Of a stretch of 33,368 nt of DNA, positions 6,353-20,156 are shown in pieces. The notes beneath the pieces are model-generated. The model ran no database searches, was not told the DNA's origin, and saw only the letters and a program-made list of their open reading frames with translations. The DNA lies in NCBI GenBank assembly GCA_964541725.1, contig CAZIQG010000001.1, positions 1 through 33,368 of the forward strand, written 5' to 3'. The position numbers and the translations under genes were made by a program. The DNA is from an uncultured Gammaproteobacteria bacterium. Lineage in GTDB: Bacteria > Patescibacteriota > Patescibacteriia > 2-12-FULL-60-25. Each line of letters starts with the position of its first letter. The stretch's first letter is position 1.

Positions 6353-8461
6353 TTACACCTCTATGATGACAGGAATCACCATCGGCCGCTGTTCCGTCTT
6401 GATGAAGAGGAATTCACCTAATTCATCACGCAACTTGTCTTTGAGGTACGTTCCATTTGGAGACGAGACCTTCGGGTCAGGCGACGCGCTCTTCAAGATC
6501 GCATTGGCTTTCTGACGTGCCTGCATGATGAGTTCTTGGTGCTCCTTCATGTAGACGAAGCCGCGAGAGATGACGTCTGGCAAGGCTTGTGGGACACCCG
6601 TTTTGCCATCGATGACAGCCACCGCGATCACCACACCTTCACTAGAAAGTTGTTGACGATCACGTAGAACAATCTGATTCGTGTTACCGACACCGAGACC
6701 ATCCACGAACACATAGTCCGTTGAGATCTTCTTGTTGGTCAACATGCCGTTGCCATGGATATCAAATTCCATGATCTGGCCGTTGTCGGCGATGAAGATA
6801 TTCTTTTCATTAAAGCCATTCTCGACCGCCGTTTTGGCATGGTCACACAAGAACGAGTAATGTCCTTCAATCGGAATCAAATACTTCGGCTTAATCATGT
6901 CATGCATCTCTTTCAAATCTTCCTGCTGCGCATGACCACCCGCGTGCACGTCCATCATCTTGTAATGGATGACTTCTGCGCCTTCGCGGTAAAGCGTGTC
7001 TTTCACGCGTTGCACCGAACGTTCGTTGCCAGGAATGACGGAGGATGAGAACACGACCGTATCTCCAGGTTCAATCGAGATAATTGGATGTTCGCGGTTT
7101 GCGATGCGCATGAGCGCTGCACGTTCTTCGCCTTGGGCACCCGTACAAATGACAGCCGTTTTTTCACGGTCATATTTATGGATGTCTTTAGTTTCGATCA
7201 GTGTGCCTTTTTGGATATCCATGTAGCCCAATTGTTGAGCGATCATGATGTTGGAACGCATCGAGAACCCTTCAATAGCGACCTTACGGTGCTGGCGTTC
7301 ACAGGCTTTGATAATTTGTTGAACGCGCGCGATCATAGACGCAAACGTCCCGATAATTACGCGACCTTTGGAGTTGGCAATGATCTCATCAATGTTATTT
7401 TGAATGTCGATTTCTGGTAATTGTTTTCCGGGTTTAGACGCATTCGTCGAGTCACACATGAGCGCCAAGACATTGCGGTTGGCCAGGTTCTTAATCTTTT
7501 CCGTTTCCTGGATCGATTGCGAGCCAGGCCCAGGATCAAGTTTAAAGTCACCCGTGTGCACAATGATTCCACAAGGTGTGTTAATAATCACACCCATGGA
7601 AGAGGGGACAGAGTGGGCGACGCCAAAGAATTCGACTTTGAAGGCGCCGAGTTGCAACACGTCATCGTACGTTACCGAGTACAAATTCAACGCGGGTGCA
7701 TTGCGATGGTCTTCCTGACGTTTTTGGATAATGCCGCAGGTAAGATCCGTGCCGAAGACAGGCGGATTGCCTAATTGAGGGATAAGATGAGGGACGCCAC
7801 CGATGTGATCGTAGTGGGCATGCGTAATAATCACGCCACGGATGTTCTTTTCTTTACCTTTCAAGCAAGAAATATTTGGAACGATATAATCAACGCCCGG
7901 CATGTCATCATCTGGAAATTGGAGACCCATGTCGATGAGCAAAATATCATTGCCGAATTCGAGCATGGTCATGTTGCGGCCAACTTCTTCGTTGCCACCT
8001 AAGACCGTAATCTTAAGGCGCTGACTTTCCTTGTGGAGCATATCTTCATCCACACCCGTTTTGCGAAAGGGTTTGTGTTTGAAGGTACTCATACGAGGGG
8101 CAGAGGCAAAGGCACCTCCCATCGAAGGACCGCGTTTAGCGTGCGCTGGAGCGCGACGATTCACTTCGTGTGAATCGCTTGTGCCACGCTCTTCTTTGGC
8201 GAAGCCTTGTTTGAGCGAGCCGCGTGTATCAAAATTCGCGCCACGTGGAGCGGTTGGAGTGGGCGTCGTCGGACGTGGACGAAAATCACCGGCCGGTTTG
8301 GCAAACACGACACCCGTTTTTACAGGCGCGTCAATGCGTGGACGTTTTGGCCCATGGCTACGCATTGGACGTCGGAATGAGGAAGAAGGAGGGCGGGAAG
8401 GCGGAGTGCTGCCACCGCGAAAGCCACCAGATGGAGCTGGGGTAGGATGTGCAGGGGTCAT
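6353..8461 (-). CDS. rnj: ribonuclease J with an Arg/Pro/Gly-rich N-terminal extension
   Basis: Metallo-beta-lactamase motif THAHYDHIGG and a body of beta-CASP length. The catalytic core starts at LKITVLGGNEEVGRNM (about aa 149). An alternative start at ATG 8041 (MLHKESQRLKITVLGG) would remove the extension. Confidence 0.9.
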   Translation of the reverse strand: MTPAHPTPAPSGGFRGGSTPPSRPPSSSFRRPMRSHGPKRPRIDAPVKTGVVFAKPAGDFRPRPTTPTPTAPRGANFDTRGSLKQGFAKEERGTSDSHEVNRRAPAHAKRGPSMGGAFASAPRMSTFKHKPFRKTGVDEDMLHKESQRLKITVLGGNEEVGRNMTMLEFGNDILLIDMGLQFPDDDMPGVDYIVPNISCLKGKEKNIRGVIITHAHYDHIGGVPHLIPQLGNPPVFGTDLTCGIIQKRQEDHRNAPALNLYSVTYDDVLQLGAFKVEFFGVAHSVPSSMGVIINTPCGIIVHTGDFKLDPGPGSQSIQETEKIKNLANRNVLALMCDSTNASKPGKQLPEIDIQNNIDEIIANSKGRVIIGTFASMIARVQQIIKACERQHRKVAIEGFSMRSNIMIAQQLGYMDIQKGTLIETKDIHKYDREKTAVICTGAQGEERAALMRIANREHPIISIEPGDTVVFSSSVIPGNERSVQRVKDTLYREGAEVIHYKMMDVHAGGHAQQEDLKEMHDMIKPKYLIPIEGHYSFLCDHAKTAVENGFNEKNIFIADNGQIMEFDIHGNGMLTNKKISTDYVFVDGLGVGNTNQIVLRDRQQLSSEGVVIAVAVIDGKTGVPQALPDVISRGFVYMKEHQELIMQARQKANAILKSASPDPKVSSPNGTYLKDKLRDELGEFLFIKTEQRPMVIPVIIEV

Positions 8462-8650: not shown

Positions 8651-8858
8651 GAGAAACGGATTTGGCGGAGTACCTCCCTCCAAATACGTAACACGGTCTG
8701 TCACGACTTTCGCTCAACCTAGCCAAGAAAGCAAGATCACACGAAAGGCGTCCAACACGAAACTCACATTTATAATAGCATAAATAGCCAAATACGTCAA
8801 CTTCTTGACCCGCCGGGTAGGATACGGCATGATCACACCTGTTCGTGCTGCTAGAGTA

Positions 8859-8979
8859 GAACCTCATAAATTTGGATGAAGACCGAGGCGGAGTCGAGGA
8901 GCAGAATAAGCCGTATCTAAACATACGGCATTGAGCACCGCAGAATCCAACGAAGGTATTCGCCAAATTTATGAGGTTC
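8859..8979 (+). ncRNA. candidate structured RNA / palindromic element, copy A
   Basis: Four nested helices: P1 8859-8875/8963-8979, P2 8878-8884/8955-8961, P3 8890-8895/8943-8948, P4 8910-8916/8923-8929. It aligns end to end with 16666-16787, with compensatory changes in the stems and identical loops. It ends 2 nt before tRNA-Leu. Confidence 0.6.
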
Positions 8980-8981
8980 GT

Positions 8982-9068
8982 GGGCGAGTGGCGGAACTGG
9001 TAGACGCACTGGTTTCAGGTACCAGCGATCGCAAGGTCATGAGGGTTCGAGTCCCTCCTCGCCCACCA
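8982..9068 (+). tRNA. tRNA-Leu (anticodon CAG), class II with long variable arm, CCA encoded
   Basis: Acceptor GGGCGAG/CTCGCCC, anticodon stem CTGGT/ACCAG with loop TTCAGGT (CAG), variable arm GATC-GCAA-GGTC, T arm GAGGG-TTCGAGT-CCCTC, discriminator A followed by CCA. Confidence 0.92.
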
Positions 9069-9072
9069 CGTA

Positions 9073-9102
9073 AAAAGCCCCGCTTCATGGCGGAGGCTTT
9101 TT
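9073..9102 (+). terminator. intrinsic terminator after tRNA-Leu
   Basis: AAAGCCCCGC / loop TTCATG / GCGG(A)GGCTTTTT, a stem with one bulged A followed by a T-run. Confidence 0.55.
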
Positions 9103-13690: not shown

Positions 13691-13789
13691 TAGGTTGTCC
13701 TCTTGCTCATTGTGGCGAAACATGATAGTCTCGCCGCCAACATGCCTAAACGTTCTGCTTCTCCAAGTCACGGCTTCGGAGACCGCTCC

Positions 13790-16660
13790 ATGATTTCCAT
13801 CAAAGGAGCTCGGGTTCATAATCTAAAAAACATCTCGATTGATCTTCCAAAGGGAAAATTCATCGTGGTAACAGGTCTTTCTGGCTCAGGAAAGTCTTCA
13901 TTGGCGTTTGATACCATTCATGCCGAAGGTCAACGCCGTTACATGGAGAGTCTCTCCTCGTATGCGCGGCAATTTTTGGAATTGCAAGATAAGCCGGATG
14001 TTGATGAGATCACCGGTCTCTCACCGACGATCGCCATCGATCAAAAATCAGCTTCCAATAACCCCCGTTCTACGGTTGGAACCGTAACGGAGATTTACGA
14101 TTTTTTACGTATCCTCTTCTCCCGTGCCGGTCGTGCCCACTGTGTGAAATGTCATTCACCCGTCATGGAACAGCCACCACGAGCGATCGCAGAAAAGGTT
14201 TTAAGCCTTACCCACTCATCGGCGATCATTTTACTCGCCCCCATGGTGCGTGAACAAAAAGGCGAGCACAAAGTTGTCTTGCAAGCCGCGCGCAATGCAG
14301 GCTATCGCGAAGTTCGTTTTGACGGCACGCTCGTAGACATCGATGAATTGCTTCGTACGCGCATCGACAAAACAAAAGAGCACACGATTGAGGTCATCAT
14401 CACCAAGCTCGATCAAAACACGAGCATGGTGATTGAGCCCTTGCTCGAAACCGTTAAACAAGCCCTTGAGCTCGGCAACGGTCTTCTCATGGCGCTTGTC
14501 GAAGAAACAGGAGAAGACATGTTGTTTTCGCAGTCCCTCTTTTGTGCTCACTGTAATATTTCCCTCCCAAGTCTTGAACCGCGTCTCTTCTCCTTCAATT
14601 CCCCTCACGGCGCCTGTCCTGCCTGTACCGGTCTTGGCACCAAACTCGTCTTAGAGCCGGATTTAGTGATTCCAAACAAGCGTCTCACGATTGCGCAAGG
14701 AGCCATCAAACCGCTCACGCGCATCGCAGGCAATCAAAACGGCCAATTAAAATTATTAGAACGCGTCGGAGAAAAACATGGATTTTCCGTGCACGAACCG
14801 GTCGCCAGCTTCTCCGCCAAAGCCTTACGTGTCCTCATGGATGGAACCGGTGACACCGCCTACGATATTGAAGGGAAGACCATGCGCTTTGGTGGCCTGG
14901 TCGCCATGTTGGAAGAAAAATACAAAGATACAGATTCTGAATACGTGCAAAAAGAGATAGAGGCTTACATGCGCGTTCTCACCTGTCCAAATTGTGAGGG
15001 CAAACGTCTTCGTCCGGAAGCGCTTGGCGTAACGGTCGCCGATAAGTCGATTGCGGATATCGTCTCTGTTCCATTAGACGATACGATCTCCTTCTTCAAA
15101 GGTTTGGGTCGCGGCCCCGTCAAAGTCCGCCCTTCGAAAATCGCGCGCATCAAGGCAACCAAGGAGGTCGATTCTCAGGGCTTCACCGAACGTGAGCGTC
15201 TCGTGGTTGATCAAATCTCCACCGAAATTTCTCGTCGCTTGCAAAACCTCATCGACGTGGGATTGAACTATCTCACTCTCGATCGTTCCGCGATGTCCCT
15301 CTCCGGTGGAGAAGCGCAACGTGTTCGTTTAGCGGCTCAACTCGGTTCAGAATTATCCGGCGTCATTTATATTTTGGATGAGCCTTCCATCGGACTCCAC
15401 TCCCGCGACAATGATAAACTCATCGCGACCATTAAACGTCTGCGTGATTTAGGTAATACCGTCATCGTTGTCGAACACGACGAAGCCATCATTCAAGCCG
15501 CCGACTATGTCGTTGACGTCGGTCCGGGGGCAGGGGAGTACGGCGGAGAAATTATTGCCGAAGGCACGCTCGCCGACATCAAACGTTCCAAAGAGTCCAC
15601 GACGGGCGCCTATCTGAGTGGCCGCCAATCAATTGCTCGTCCCAAAGTCCGTCGCCGTGGCAATGGGAAAGCGCTCATGATCAAGGGTGCCACCGCCTTC
15701 AATCTCAAAAACGTCGACGTCAGCATTCCGCTTGGTCGCTTCGTATGTGTCACGGGGGTATCTGGTTCTGGAAAATCCACCCTCGTCTTAGATATTTTAG
15801 GTCGCGCCCTCTCCTCGCATTTCTACGGAGCCAAAGATCCAGTTGCCGCCCACAAAACCATCGACGGCATCGACTGCCTCGACAAGATCGTATCTGTCGA
15901 CCAATCTCCAATCGGCCGTACGCCACGCTCCAACCCAGCCACCTACACGGGTCTCTTCACCATTATCCGCGATCTCTTCACCGAAATTCCAGAAGCCAAG
16001 ATGCGCGGCTTTGATGCGGGAAAATTCTCCTTCAACGTCAAAGGTGGCGGACGCTGTGAACCCTGTGGCGGAGATGGTTATGTTCAAATCTCGATGCAGT
16101 TCTTACCTGATGTCTACGTCGAATGCAGTGAGTGCCACGGTCGTCGCTACAATTCCGAAGCCTTAGAAATCCACTGGCGCGGCAAAAACATCGCCGACAT
16201 TCTCGACATGACCGTCGAAGAATCCCGCCGCTTCTTTGTCGATCAACCCCTCATTTACGAAAAGCTTTCGGTCCTCCACGAAGTCGGTCTCGGCTATGTA
16301 AAACTCGGCCAACCTGCCACGACATTATCTGGCGGTGAAGCACAGCGTGTGAAATTAGCGACAGAGCTTTCTCGTCGTGCCACCGGCAAAACCCTCTACA
16401 TCCTTGATGAGCCAACCACCGGTCTGCACTTCGACGATATCAAACGTCTCTTGATCGTCTTGAATGCGCTCGTCGATAAAGGCAACACGGTCCTCGTAAT
16501 TGAGCACAACATGGACATCATCAAATCCGCCGACTGGGTCATTGACGTCGGTCCTGAAGGCGGTGTCTACGGCGGAGAAATCGTGGCACAAGGAGTGCCC
16601 GAAGAAGTCGCCAAAGTGAAGGGCAGTTGGACCGGGAAATACTTAAAAGAAGCATTGTAA
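13790..16660 (+). CDS. uvrA: excinuclease ABC subunit A
   Basis: Two ABC modules (GLSGSGKSS and GVSGSGKST Walker A; LSGGEAQRV signature twice) and zinc-finger Cys clusters ([16 protein letters not shown]). ATG 13790 ([14 protein letters not shown]) has GGAGA 7 nt upstream. The ORF is open from TTG 13703. Confidence 0.93.
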
Positions 16661-16665
16661 TAGAC

Positions 16666-16787
16666 AAGAGCCTACAAATTTGGATGAAGAGCGAGGCGCA
16701 GGTGAGGAGTGGAGTAAACCGTATTAAACATACGGTGTCGAGCACCGCAACCTGCAACGAAGCTATTCGCCGAATTTGTAGGCTCTT
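16666..16787 (+). ncRNA. candidate structured RNA / palindromic element, copy B
   Basis: P1 16666-16683/16770-16787 (18 bp including one T:G wobble at 16681:16772), P2 16686-16692/16762-16768, P3 16698-16703/16750-16755, P4 16718-16724/16730-16736. It begins 6 nt after the uvrA stop. Confidence 0.6.
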
Positions 16788-16796
16788 ATAAAAATA

Positions 16797-16839
16797 ACGA
16801 GCCCCGTGCGAGGTCTTCTGTTTAGGAAGAGGGGCTCGT
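16797..16839 (-). terminator. terminator of the metalloprotease gene
   Basis: ACGAGCCCC...GGGGCTCGT outer stem with an inner TCTTC/GAAGA stem. On the minus strand it is followed by TTATTTTTAT. Confidence 0.55.
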
Positions 16840-16857
16840 ACGGGCGAAAGGAAGAGG

Positions 16858-17925
16858 TTAGTTGTGAAGGGGGACACGTGTCCCCCTTTTAAGTTGATGG
16901 CCAGATGGCGCATCGAGCACCCGCTGCTCGTAGTTGCCGATCCGACCACCGATTCGCCTAACGGACTCAAGTCCGTGCGCGGTCTGTACCGTCGCGACGG
17001 TGTGCATGACTCCACGGTTCCAGAACGACCGACTGCTGACCACCAGGCCGTGTTCCGTCGTTTGCGGCTGCACGCGGGGGTAGCCGAGGACGAGGAGGAG
17101 CGCAGAGGCGGCGTAGAAAGAGGCCGTTGTCGCGGTAGACCGATCTTTTCTAATGAAGAATGCGTAGATAACGAAGATAAGTGCCGTTATACAGATGAAA
17201 AGGCAGACCGATAGCACGACAGTACATGTAAGTGACGCACCCGGCTCACGCGGAGAAGGGGCTGGTCCACTGGCGTATGTCTCTGTAATTGAGGCGATGT
17301 CTGACGGGCCAAGATCTCGCTTGGCGATTTCCCCTGGTTGGGAAGAAGGGAACATCGTAGCGTCTGCGTGGCCAGGGTCCTCTACGAGTCCAAGTGCGTG
17401 GCCAAACTCATGTGTAACCACATTCGGAAAATCATAGAGAGCACCTGGAACCCCCAGCATCGATTCGCCGAGGATGGTAAAGCGGTTACGCTCGCCGTCG
17501 AATATAATGTCTGCGTCCACGACCTCACCCGTTTTAGAATCACGAGTAAGGAGAGTGAGCGCCAGCACCTGACGACCGATGCAGGCACGAGGGAATCCGT
17601 GCCGATAGAATCGGATGCCGTGCTGGTTATTATCACTATCATCATGATAACCGATCGGCCCCGTCTCGCCTGCCTCGATCTGAAAGCGGGGTGCATTTGG
17701 ACTCGCGACTTCCCAGGCATGAGCCGCTTGCGTTACCCATCTCACGGGATCAGATACGGGCGACCCACGAAACGATTCCACATCAACGATGAAGTGGATC
17801 ACATCTGTATTCCAGTGAACGATATTACCACCATCAACCCTGTTCACAGACTGCCCCCATCCAAAGGCGGGGAGAAGGGTGAGACAGAAGAACATGATGC
17901 CTAGGAGGCTGTTTTTGATGCTCAT
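16858..17925 (-). CDS. membrane-anchored zinc metalloprotease (zincin, HEFGHALGLVED)
   Basis: ATG at 17925 is preceded by GGAGAGAG. The product has a signal peptide (MSIKNSLLGIMFFCLTLLPAFGWG), an HExxHxxGxxE/D zincin motif, the TM helix LTCTVVLSVCLFICITALIFVIYAFFI and a cytoplasmic tail. The ORF is open to 17958. Confidence 0.7.
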   Translation of the reverse strand: MSIKNSLLGIMFFCLTLLPAFGWGQSVNRVDGGNIVHWNTDVIHFIVDVESFRGSPVSDPVRWVTQAAHAWEVASPNAPRFQIEAGETGPIGYHDDSDNNQHGIRFYRHGFPRACIGRQVLALTLLTRDSKTGEVVDADIIFDGERNRFTILGESMLGVPGALYDFPNVVTHEFGHALGLVEDPGHADATMFPSSQPGEIAKRDLGPSDIASITETYASGPAPSPREPGASLTCTVVLSVCLFICITALIFVIYAFFIRKDRSTATTASFYAASALLLVLGYPRVQPQTTEHGLVVSSRSFWNRGVMHTVATVQTAHGLESVRRIGGRIGNYEQRVLDAPSGHQLKRGTRVPLHN

Positions 17926-17980
17926 GATGCTCTCTCCGGCTGTTGTTTGAAAGTCCATTGCCCTTTACAGGCAAGAAGGA

Positions 17981-18009
17981 AGCATAGCGCAAAAACCCCC
18001 ATTTGTCAA
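17981..18009 (-). promoter_or_regulatory. near-consensus promoter of the metalloprotease gene
   Basis: On the minus strand: TTGACA (18009-18004), 17-nt spacer, TATGCT (17986-17981). Confidence 0.5.
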
Positions 18010-18127
18010 TCAGAAAAAGCTTAAAAACAGCTAATATTAGCAATAAAAACACCCCACTCAGATGGTCTGCGATACGAAGGTAGGCATCCGAGCGGGGGAA
18101 GGTAGGGAAGAAGGAGCGGAATCGTGT

Positions 18128-19288
18128 CTACGCGGCGAGTGCGACCTGACGGAAGTGCTTCTGGAGGCCTCTGACGCAGCCCGCGTATCGGGGGTGTCGT
18201 TCTTCGATGAGCTCGGTCCGATTCTTGTCCTTGTGGGGGAAGAAGTCACGTCCTGCGAGCGACCAGGGGACGTAGAGGCAGGCGTCGTCATCGCACGGCA
18301 TGAGGATGCCGTACTCGCCGATCTCTGCTTCCTGCACGTCACAGAGGATGAAGCGCTTGTGCACGAGGTCTTTCGCCTTCTCCTTCTTGGCACCCACGCG
18401 CTTGAAGAGCGCTTCGAGGTTCACGAGCCCGTGGATCGGATCTCGCAGTTCCTCTGCGCTCTTGCGAACGAGTCGACTCTCCTCGAGGAGCGTGCTTGCC
18501 GCACTCACCATCCAGCGCCGCTTGATCACTTTGATGCGGAGGTTGCGCGGGTTGTGGACGATCCGCCAGCCAAGACCGTTAGATGCGTCCCGCTTCAGGA
18601 GCTTGGCGCTACAGAAGCGTCCGATGGTCTGCAGAAGCTCCTTCTCATCCGCATCAAGCCCGAGGCGCAGCGCCTCAAGCCTGAGCGCGGGCGAGAGGGA
18701 TGGATCCCATCCGTCGATGGGCTGGTCGTCAGGCGTCTGTCCCACGAAGTAGGCCCACACCCGCTGTTCGGCCGGAGTCATGTACGCTCCCAGCCATCCA
18801 TGCTCCACCCGTCCACGCGCAGGAGGCTCACTAGCGGATCCGACCATGGGCCTCTCGTATGCTCTCGGTCGGGCACACGGGCGTTCGGGAAGCGGAGCCT
18901 GAACCGTTCCTTTCTGCTTGCTTCGCGTCCTTTTCTTCTTGGGAGATGACGCCTTTGCTTTGGGAGTGAACGGCTTCTTCGTCGACTCGAATTCGCTGGG
19001 ATCCTGCACGAGGATGTAGCCGCCCTCGTCACCTTTGACAACCCAGGACTTCATCGTTCGATAGAAGATGGTGCGCGCTTCATCTCCGTTGACGCGCTCC
19101 CAGGAGCGGCACACATCGTTATCGCGTCGAAGACGATCTGCGATCTCGAAGATCAGTTTTACCGGGTTCTCTGCCTTCAGCACGAGCCTTCCTCGTGCAT
19201 CTTCAGTGCCCAGCCTGTGAAGCTCGCGATAGATCGCGATCGCCCACCGGCGTCGAGCGTCTCCTCTTGTTTGTTCTCTTGTCCCCAC
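18128..19288 (-). CDS. hypothetical protein (orphan Z, 386 aa, Lys-rich linker)
   Basis: GTG at 19288 has AGGAGAGA 4 nt upstream and the codon pattern is consistent throughout. Two domains are separated by KKPFTPKAKASSPKKKRTRSKQKG. No domain recognised. The antisense ORF 18062-18949 is taken to be a GC-driven artefact. Confidence 0.6.
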   Translation of the reverse strand: MGTREQTRGDARRRWAIAIYRELHRLGTEDARGRLVLKAENPVKLIFEIADRLRRDNDVCRSWERVNGDEARTIFYRTMKSWVVKGDEGGYILVQDPSEFESTKKPFTPKAKASSPKKKRTRSKQKGTVQAPLPERPCARPRAYERPMVGSASEPPARGRVEHGWLGAYMTPAEQRVWAYFVGQTPDDQPIDGWDPSLSPALRLEALRLGLDADEKELLQTIGRFCSAKLLKRDASNGLGWRIVHNPRNLRIKVIKRRWMVSAASTLLEESRLVRKSAEELRDPIHGLVNLEALFKRVGAKKEKAKDLVHKRFILCDVQEAEIGEYGILMPCDDDACLYVPWSLAGRDFFPHKDKNRTELIEERHPRYAGCVRGLQKHFRQVALAA

Positions 19289-19342
19289 GGGTCTCTCCTG
19301 ATGATGGTGGGTTGTGAGTTGCTGACAGAAAGTCAGCCCTTG

Positions 19343-19371
19343 TTCTTAGCGAAAAAATGGAGGTATGTCAA
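19343..19371 (-). promoter_or_regulatory. candidate promoter of orphan Z
   Basis: On the minus strand: TTGACA (19371-19366), 17-nt spacer, TAAGAA (19348-19343). It lies back to back with the tRNA promoter -35 box (TGTCAA-N8-TTGACA). Confidence 0.3.
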
Positions 19372-19379
19372 CCCTATAC

Positions 19380-19408
19380 TTGACAAAATCCAAGAAAACA
19401 AGTTGAAT
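19380..19408 (+). promoter_or_regulatory. candidate promoter of the tandem tRNA genes
   Basis: TTGACA (19380-19385), 17-nt spacer, TTGAAT (19403-19408). The predicted start is 2-3 nt before the tRNA 5' end at 19418. Confidence 0.45.
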
Positions 19409-19417
19409 TGACGCTTC

Positions 19418-19489
19418 GGGTCGGTAGTGCCAAAGGGAGAACCCAGGTGTGCAACGCCTGAAATACGGGTTCGAATCCCGTCCGATCCA
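19418..19489 (+). tRNA. tRNA with anticodon GCA (Cys by anticodon) but an Ala-type acceptor (G3:U70, A73); no CCA encoded
   Basis: Acceptor GGGTCGG/CCGATCC, anticodon stem CAGGT/GCCTG with loop GTGCAAC, T arm ACGGG-TTCGAAT-CCCGT. The D stem GTGC/GAAC has one mismatch and position 14 is C. Confidence 0.6.
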
Positions 19490-19515
19490 CCCAGATCCTT
19501 AATGTGCGAAGCAAA

Positions 19516-19587
19516 GGGGCCGTAGTTGTAATGGGAGAGTTCTGGGCTAATGACCCGGCGATGCGGGTTCGATCCCCGTCGGCTCCA
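19516..19587 (+). tRNA. tRNA-like gene with anticodon AAT and an Ala-type acceptor (GGGGC..., G3:U70, A73); possibly degenerate
   Basis: Acceptor GGGGCCG/CGGCTCC, anticodon stem CTGGG/CCCGG with loop CTAATGA, T arm GCGGG-TTCGATC-CCCGT. The D stem GTTG/GAGT is weak (two wobbles and one mismatch). Confidence 0.45.
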
Positions 19588-19620
19588 CAGATGTCAAAAC
19601 AGCCCTTTCTTCTCTTCCCG

Positions 19621-19653
19621 GACGGACTCCTCAAAGGTCCGTCTTATCTTTTT
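19621..19653 (+). terminator. intrinsic terminator after the tRNA pair
   Basis: GACGGAC / 9-nt loop / GTCCGTC, followed by TTATCTTTTT. Confidence 0.55.
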
Positions 19654-19749
19654 CCCTAATCTTAGCGAGCTTTCCCTCTTTGGTAGGTAAGTGTTCGCCT
19701 TTGGCCTTTCTGACGCCTAATCCCTGACGCCTGACGCCGATCCCTGCCC

Positions 19750-19778
19750 TTGACGTTTCCCCTAAACATCGCTATCCT
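19750..19778 (+). promoter_or_regulatory. candidate rplS promoter
   Basis: TTGACG (19750-19755), 17-nt spacer, TATCCT (19773-19778). The ATG at 19794 implies a leader of about 9 nt without an SD. Confidence 0.4.
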
Positions 19779-19793
19779 TAGCCCATCATTTCT

Positions 19794-20156
19794 ATGGCCG
19801 ACGCATTAAAGCTCCCAGCCGCTATCCAGCCTGGGCAGGTAGAAACGGGCATGACCGTCCGTATTCACCAGAAAATCAAAGATCTCAACGCCAAAGGCGA
19901 GGAACGCGAACGTATCCAGGTCTTTGAAGGCTTGGTTATGAAGGTTGGCGGCAATGGCGTCAGCAAAACCATGACCATCCGCAAAGTGACGGATGGCATT
20001 GGTGTGGAACGTATCTATCCATTAGCTTCGCCAATCATCTCAAAGATTGAATTGGTAAAAATGGTGAAGGTTCGCCGTAACAACATTTCCTTCGTGCGCG
20101 ATAGCAAGAAGCGCATGAAAGAAGTCAAAAACATCACCCTTCGCGCCACCGCCTAA
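19794..20156 (+). CDS. rplS: 50S ribosomal protein L19
   Basis: 120 aa containing [25 protein letters not shown] and [17 protein letters not shown], which are typical of bL19. Confidence 0.92.

Follow-up and report, generated by a model that had tools for sequence, protein, structure and literature searches.

The stretch of DNA that was analysed (33,368 nt, referred to here as the window) carries two copies of a rod-like element of about 120 nt, and a scan of the window found copies A and B only, with no third. Copy A (8858..8980, + strand) is the 5' leader of a tRNA-Leu(CAG) gene (8982..9068, +), and the gap of two nucleotides originally reported between its end at 8979 and the tRNA is correct. 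Upstream of both lies a sigma-70-like promoter (TTGACC-17-CATGAT, 8805..8833, +), a match to the consensus only, which is conserved in the syntenic relative L121. The copy A/tRNA-Leu transcription unit is closed by an intrinsic-terminator-like hairpin with a T run (9080..9097, +), and, given its place between the conserved promoter-like site and the tRNA, copy A is expected to be transcribed as a tRNA leader. Copy B (16666..16787, +) begins 5 nt past the stop codon of uvrA (13703..16660, +), in the 3' untranslated region of that gene. It is followed by a terminator-like hairpin, GGGGGACACGTGTCCCC plus TTTT (16869..16885, +), and by a peptidase gene (16858-17958, - strand) that is convergent with uvrA and copy B; if this hairpin is used, copy B would be co-transcribed with uvrA. 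The interval from copy B to the peptidase gene contains a second hairpin, AGCCCCGTGCGAGGTCTTCTGTTTAGGAAGAGGGGCTCGTACGGGC (16803-16846), which is conserved in L121 apart from a few changes. Neither full rod has an intrinsic terminator flagged at its 3' end, those on the + strand being the two downstream hairpins just described, and the two minus-strand terminator matches within the rods are on internal hairpins (P4 in copy A, the core region in copy B).

The Rfam 15 matches within the window are RNase P RNA and three tRNAs. The RNase P RNA (756-1223) is of class A (158.9 bits) and exceeds the Rfam model by about 100 nt, with several large insertions. Beyond the peptidase gene, some 1.8 kb of the window (17958-19794) is absent from L121, where rplS directly follows the peptidase gene. 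Within this stretch are an ORF of 386 aa with no Pfam match (18128-19288, -) and a tRNA-Cys(GCA)/tRNA-Ile(AAT) pair (19418-19588); bacterial tRNA-Ile rarely has an AAU anticodon.

Copies A and B align end to end at the places originally given, over 123 columns with 87% identity and no internal rearrangement. Each folds as a single rod, with an MFE of -52.7 kcal/mol (z -8.46) for copy A and -59.4 kcal/mol (z -8.85) for copy B, and none of 200 shuffles was as stable in either case. In copy A (CM R2, 123.3 bits), the outer helix P1 (8859-8875/8963-8979) is followed by a bulged A (A8876), then by P2 (8877-8884/8955-8962), the junction J2/3 with GAGGC (8885-8889) opposite AACGAA (8949-8954), P3 (8890-8895/8943-8948), a core (8896-8909/8930-8942) whose 5' strand begins GAGGAG and pairs with a 3' strand ending GAGCACCGCA, and P4 (8910-8916/8923-8929) with its loop at 8917-8922. 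The corresponding parts of copy B (CM R2, 123.5 bits) are P1 (16666-16683/16770-16787), P2 (16685-16692/16762-16769), the J2/3 segments GAGGC (16693-16697) and AACGAA (16756-16761), P3 (16698-16703/16750-16755), the core (16704-16717/16737-16749) and P4 (16718-16724/16730-16736), all on the + strand.

The four helices of the original prediction pair in 98.6% of their cells, against 30-39% in slid controls. Contrary to the original description, P2 contains a G.A mismatch, and P3 of copy A has another (8893:8945). Their compensatory swaps are confirmed, with 11 double changes between the copies (six in P1, one in P2, three in P3, one in P4; slid controls give 0-1), and the T:G wobble reported at 16681:16772 is present. 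The segments GAGGC, GAGGAG, GAGCACCGCA and AACGAA had been described as unpaired and identical in both copies; identical they are, but GAGGAG and GAGCACCGCA are not unpaired, since they pair with one another. The unit is the whole rod.

Members and hosts of the family

A scan of reference-genome contigs with GAGCACCGCAN{4,9}AACGAA was too loose, giving at least 120 loci, mostly by chance; among the loci listed, the only real member is L011, a Chloroflexi MAG with several copies, which was picked by a covariance model of the two window copies. For metagenomes the pattern required GAGGAG, GAGCACCGCA and AACGAA followed by G, with GAGGC optional. It found 49 loci, 41 of them confirmed by covariance models, while the remaining eight resemble chance matches within ORFs. 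The viral contigs that were scanned for the family gave no match.

Members range in GC content from 0.36 to 0.72. Flanking proteins or record titles place their hosts among the Patescibacteria, both Uhrbacteria-like (the window) and Paceibacteria-like (L174), and in the Chloroflexota, with the Chloroflexi MAG and Candidatus Limnocylindrales (L138/L181). The family is a possible marker of a relationship between CPR and Chloroflexota. Copy density is 0-3 per 20 kb sampled, L011 having three copies within 8 kb, and hundreds per genome are not apparent in the sampled sequence. Tandem arrays with a period of 118-130 nt occur at L127, L142 and L148, one of them with a truncated first unit. Many members are located at contig ends, as is expected of repeats that break assemblies, and the rods probably do break metagenome assemblies.

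Rfam 15 (cmscan, gathering threshold) returns only RNase P, tRNA and tmRNA for the window and 20 member loci, in agreement with the earlier view that the family is not a known one, and at E<=10 the matches to copy A, L148 and L170 are at chance level. Full-text literature searches found no published description of the core strings, or of such repeats in CPR or Chloroflexi. The family is an undescribed repeat of about 120 nt in Patescibacteria and Chloroflexota.

Conserved structure and strand preference

The layout of the rod is constant, with P1 (long, near-perfect and fast-evolving) and P2 enclosing a conserved irregular helix that is capped by a variable hairpin, P4. The irregular helix consists of CGAGGCG opposite CAACGAAG, next P3, and next GAGGAGCGGAG opposite CGAGCACCGCAG. 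Between P2 and P3 it forms a purine-rich internal loop, GAGGC opposite AACGAA, in which G:A is replaced by U:C in two variants. Inside P3 the core helix runs G-C, A.G, G-C, G-C, A.A, G-C, C-G and leads through a 3x2 loop to P4. Over 48 distinct sequences, 90.6-91.9% of cells are paired (shuffles 57-63%, slid controls about 33%), and 36 of 37 pairs, or 39 of 43 in the refined structure, are changed on both sides.

Rare variants extend this covariation into the core. G6:C4' becomes C:G in three copies, and G4:C6' becomes both A:U and U:A; at two more positions G:C becomes G:U, and there is an additional pair, G11:C0'. This means that what had been taken for invariant loops is really an irregular helix in which G-C pairs alternate with purine-purine mismatches, and that the rod is continuous. 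Both the covariation and the conserved core, first noted in two copies, hold across about 50 further ones. The core sequence is almost invariant over the whole GC range and in two phyla, a conservation that is due in part to retrieval, since most copies were fetched with a pattern that demanded the core motifs. Variant cores (GAGGACCGGAGUG) resemble one strand, the 3' one, of the sarcin-ricin loop in 23S rRNA, which we treat as a coincidence because the pairing register differs. The cores of kink-turns, loop E, UAA/GAN motifs, hammerheads and hairpin ribozymes do not fit on inspection, and the Rfam result is negative.

Mismatches between the arms differ by strand and by helix. The computed total of G.U against A.C mismatches is 115:39; by a hand tally of the per-copy list, P2-P4 account for about 90:16, with conserved wobble positions, and P1 for about 25:23. 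The bias in P2-P4 indicates that the inner part is constrained on one strand, which is the + strand of the window, as had been proposed, while P1 is strand-symmetric. This bears on the possibility that the rod is a double-stranded or cruciform DNA site for the host, bound by gyrase or a nucleoid protein, as has been proposed for REP/BIME, or acting as some other chromosome-level signal. The P1 mismatches without strand bias would suit such a site, as would intergenic positions and an orientation independent of genes (see below). It would leave the strong single-strand wobble signature of P2-P4 unaccounted for, however; the conserved asymmetric mismatches would be ordinary pairs in a duplex, with no reason to covary, and copies are gained, lost and decay. 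We consider it very improbable.

Genomic contexts and turnover

The contexts of members are diverse and never coding, and no gene neighbourhood recurs. An enrichment in translation-related operons, hinted at by the first annotated flanks, is not borne out by the diverse later ones. Copies in the sense orientation include tRNA 5' leaders behind promoter-like sites (copy A and L133), one in the rpsT 5' UTR (L128), one that exactly fills the spacer between rsmI and metG (L154), and copy B in the uvrA 3' UTR. Antisense copies lie between rpsG and fusA (L144), past rpoC and before its terminator-like hairpin (L139), past gyrB (L179), past secY in a Patescibacterium of GC 0.36 (L174), and past PDT, RNR, ABC and NUDIX genes; L011 has three, one past rpsI, one separating truA from rplQ and one separating secY from adk. 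The rpsG-fusA, secY-adk, rpoC and rpsI sites are in essential operons. Where the context is unambiguous, about half of the copies run antisense to the genes on either side in tight operons, with no space for a promoter of their own (L144, three copies in L011, L168/L173, L135). The copy at L161 lies between two convergent terminator-like hairpins (identified by eye) and outside both. Relative to GC skew, taken as an indicator of the replication strand, orientations divide 15:11, and no bias is seen. At L135 (1743-2255) a member is found 8 nt from the 3' end of a tmRNA gene, in convergent orientation.

At 13 loci (hand count) a gene on the opposite strand has its stop codon overlapped or directly abutted by the 3' end of the element, for example at L170 2707-2709, L174 5609-5612, L181 10841-10843, L139 7633 and L144 1245-1248, and at only two (hand count) is its 5' end at the stop codon of a co-directional gene. 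Since many termini read TAG/TGA...CTA/TCA, the rod has stop codons at both ends. By creating stop codons, tRNA leaders and intercistronic hairpins, the rods shape gene ends and transcripts.

A gain can be followed at a prephenate dehydratase (PDT) gene of Limnocylindrales. The protein encoded beside the rod ends ..VYHRAE*, its TAG lying within the rod terminus. Nearly all other PDT relatives (58 checked) end ..VYHR[AS]AEE or in a close variant, two residues longer, and in an 84% relative the spacer measures 30 nt and contains no rod. Comparison of these endings points clearly to a rod insertion that replaced the last two PDT codons and supplied the stop codon, the sole clear gain event.

Loss is seen in L121, whose UvrA is 98% identical to that of the window, with flanks about 95% identical by eye. 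At the site of copy B, it has only AAGAGCCTGCA-CACG-TGCAGGCTCTT, which is outer P1 around a tetraloop. At the site of copy A, its element is without the 5' P1 arm, P3 and GAGGAG are replaced by 33 nt, and the 3' half is about 20% diverged (hand count), including compensatory changes in P4. As this ortholog lacks the P1 arm and GAGGAG, the rod is dispensable for tRNA-Leu. No members were found at the copy A and B sites in more distant relatives. The L121 hairpin might be read as an empty target, that is, a terminator loop into which a rod had inserted. This is contradicted by the outer P1, which is homologous across loci (CPR subfamily RGGNCTTnnnnnTTTGG, Limnocylindrales subfamily AGCTCGnnnGGCCGnCGG), and insertion into a hairpin loop also fails at L181, where a separate terminator hairpin persists next to the rod. 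Taken together, the P1 homology and the L181 hairpin indicate that the L121 hairpin is the remnant of an internal deletion.

Decay is also evident at the secY-adk junction of the Paceibacteria clade, where the rod is intact in L174, while L178 (95% SecY identity), L179 and L180 keep P1/P2 with a core that is deleted, interrupted or A/T-rich. Another copy in L179 is a perfect rod in which the purine core is replaced by an A-U helix. In two of these Paceibacteria relatives, map is followed by an inserted gene whose product, of about 915 aa, has DUF8128 and DUF87/TrwB-like ATPase domains (L179 13925-16681, L180 5429-8170), and L178 is without it there.

A different rod-like element follows directly after the uvrA stop codon in 93% and 90% relatives (L177 3826-3940, L176 about 7115-7200). 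It has a long outer stem, GGCTAGGACAGCGGGCTTTTTCT...AGAAAAAGCCTGCCGTCCTAGCC, and the conserved inner strings GAACTCGTCAGC, CGAT, TTGGATT and CAGTCCTCG, and it folds with an MFE of -52.7 kcal/mol (z -4.2). In this clade, structured inserts seem to accumulate at the 3' end of uvrA.

Another possibility is a hairpin cassette selected by the host to act in cis in either orientation, as an mRNA 3'-end stabiliser, RNase III processing site or transcription barrier. Such a cassette would be spread by duplication and recombination, and its outer stem would be the useful part. Decayed copies do lose the core yet retain the P1/P2 hairpin, and the L179 rod is perfect despite its A-U helix. Both strands fold nearly equally (copy A -52.7 kcal/mol, its complementary strand still -49.5), copies occupy gene ends, the spaces between cistrons, and tRNA leaders, and ERIC-like repeats are reported to modulate mRNA stability (PMC3184786). 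A cassette of this kind leaves the strand-specific, sequence-invariant core unexplained, however, and close relatives manage without the rod at the same sites. The rods, having no T runs (by eye), are not intrinsic terminators, and separate terminator-like hairpins come after them. We therefore regard this explanation as distinctly unlikely.

The original prediction had taken the rods for a functional RNA and not for a repeat in decay. In that case the rods would be a true class of structured RNA made from the + strand, either a self-cleaving ribozyme or an RNA with a protein or ribonucleoprotein partner, with the purine helix as active or binding site and P1 needed only as a long duplex. Hammerhead, twister and hairpin ribozymes are likewise small, with strong covariation and a helical scaffold that contains conserved internal loops, and the occurrence of the rods in several copies, in tandem and in scattered contexts resembles that of hammerhead and twister. 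Every helix covaries strongly, as does the non-canonical core, wobble positions are conserved with G.U bias on one strand, and the core is near-invariant in two phyla over a wide GC range. The tRNA leaders behind promoter-like sites (copy A, L133) and the rpsT 5' UTR copy (L128) would also fit, and as no known family matches, the class would be new. Against this, the rods have no recognisable catalytic core or Rfam match. About half of the unambiguous copies are antisense in tight operons without promoter space, and at L161 the copy falls beyond both convergent terminators. At orthologous loci the core has been lost, as it has in a 98% relative, one insertion truncates a conserved protein, and there is no recurrent gene neighbourhood. 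The family is multicopy, found in either orientation, polymorphic, decaying and gene-truncating, and the host RNA claim is not upheld; we rate a structured RNA class as rather unlikely. A wider caution is that strong covariation and conserved "loops" alone do not identify a host RNA gene.

Known repeat systems and a proposed mode of spread

To our knowledge, most of the small palindromic repeats described are from Proteobacteria, Firmicutes and Cyanobacteria, and the movement of most of them is unexplained; the tiny CPR genomes had been considered poor in mobile DNA. Several named systems share features with the rods. ERIC/IRU (127-bp), Correia/NEMIS, RUP, YPAL and bcr1 are also imperfect palindromes of about 120 nt with a rod fold. 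Like the rods, they occupy intergenic positions, often next to the 3' ends of genes, can face either way and are co-transcribed, with internal deletion and insertion variants and presence or absence between strains, and for compensatory changes in bacterial intergenic repeats there is a precedent in bcr1 (PMC3184786). The rods differ in having variable termini and a conserved centre, without TA or other target-site duplications. No direct repeats were found around 28 copies with stems extended to their ends, nor did these have a conserved flank, a flanking tetranucleotide (the IS200/IS605-type target) or TA flanks. ERIC-type families are restricted to a genus or family, whereas the asymmetric, non-canonical core of the rod spans two phyla. 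The hallmarks of ERIC are a 127-bp consensus, hosts in Enterobacteriaceae and Vibrionaceae, and TA flanks, and the rod presumably has no similarity to that consensus. In DDE-derived MITEs the terminal inverted repeats are conserved among copies, while the P1 inverted repeat is the most variable part of the rod.

REPs are defined as palindromes of 20-40 nt tagged GTAG or CGTC, REPINs as two inverted REPs, and GTAG REPs have been reported in Chloroflexi (PMC3733652). Together with RAYTs (IS200/IS605-type HUH tyrosine transposases), these elements offer the parallel of a non-autonomous element whose single-stranded DNA structure is recognised and which leaves no target-site duplication; REPINs further share a hairpin of about 100 nt, clusters or arrays, and selection on the element population. 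Neither end of the rods, in contrast, is tagged with GTAG or CGTC, the two halves of the core (5' and 3') are unrelated rather than reverse complements of one unit, and no RAYT gene was seen near any copy in the fetched flanks. Integron attC sites (rods of 57-141 nt) likewise depend on structure over sequence, on one folded DNA strand and on conserved unpaired or extrahelical features. The hypervariable stem bases of the rods are without R'' (RYYYAAC) and R' (GTTRRRY) boxes, however, no cassette ORFs lie between tandem rods (118-130 nt apart), no integrase is nearby, and the inner part is conserved in sequence. As all testable hallmarks of ERIC-type or MITE-like elements, REP/REPIN and attC are lacking, the rods fall in no named family and are best described as small structured intergenic repeats. 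What is unusual is their range in CPR and Chloroflexota, the conserved centre with variable ends, and the non-canonical core.

MITE or REP behaviour had been named as evidence against a functional RNA. Most of it is found, namely many copies that behave as such repeats do; target-site duplications are not, and the covariation exceeds simple hairpin symmetry.

Because the core is not preserved per locus, orientation is free of transcription and genes are clipped, a mobile repeat fits better than a host RNA gene. On balance we lean towards reading the rods as non-autonomous mobile repeats of about 120 nt whose spread passes through a single-stranded intermediate and whose core is recognised by an enzyme. 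Their turnover is directly visible in copies that were gained, tandem-duplicated, internally deleted or decayed. If the rods are mobile, a core that is strand-specific, invariant and covarying must serve the element itself, and the folded core would be recognised by a trans-acting enzyme not encoded nearby. By analogy with IS200/IS605, RAYT-REP and attC, the intermediate would be DNA rather than RNA; DNA is also favoured because in many copies the folding strand cannot be transcribed, target-site duplications are lacking and the ends are not conserved. Covariation would then result from selection, among lineages of the element, for the ability to propagate. In quasi-palindromes, one arm can be corrected with the other as template, and this may have aided the covariation of P1. 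After insertion, the host would not maintain the core, which would decay while the outer hairpin persists. A transcribed rod would form a stable hairpin of about 45 bp in either orientation, and would probably have incidental roles at the RNA level: a tRNA leader removed by RNase P, a hairpin between cistrons or in a 5' or 3' UTR, or an RNase III-type site.

Several observations weigh against mobility. The fetched flanks show no transposase, reverse transcriptase or other candidate enzyme beside any copy and no autonomous parent element, and only one gain is clear. Near-invariance of the core in two phyla is atypical of selfish repeats and is seen more often in RNAs that contact conserved machinery, and variable termini with a conserved centre are the opposite of classical MITEs. 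Density is modest, the 15:11 division gives no orientation bias with GC skew, and the tRNA leaders behind promoters (copy A, L133) are compatible with RNA expression. A bolder and tentative proposal, which we think somewhat unlikely, is that the irregular helix (CGAGGCG/CAACGAAG with GAGGAGCGGAG/CGAGCACCGCAG) might be the active site or recognition module of a new class of element specific to Patescibacteria (CPR) and Chloroflexota, and an ancient non-coding link between them. Such a class could be a new small ribozyme, an RNA that forms an RNP, or an element on which a single-strand transposase or reverse transcriptase acts. The family, present in CPR genomes and Chloroflexota, with a conserved asymmetric core and no transposon-like ends, is easily recognised and strongly covarying and offers a tractable case for asking how structure-dependent repeats propagate.

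Tandem units of 59 nt are found between two genes in an Actinomycetota MAG (CAVWCL010000003; L010 5543-5761, also L053 and L086). The units contain GCGC-GAGGAGCGAGC-GGGT-GCGAGCACCGCA-GCGC-GAACGAA and looks like the family core with P4 shrunk to a short loop. The match to the family model is weak and covers the core only (19.6 bits), and a MIRU-like nature of these units was considered and is not established. They may be a miniaturised derivative of the rod, or a case of convergence.
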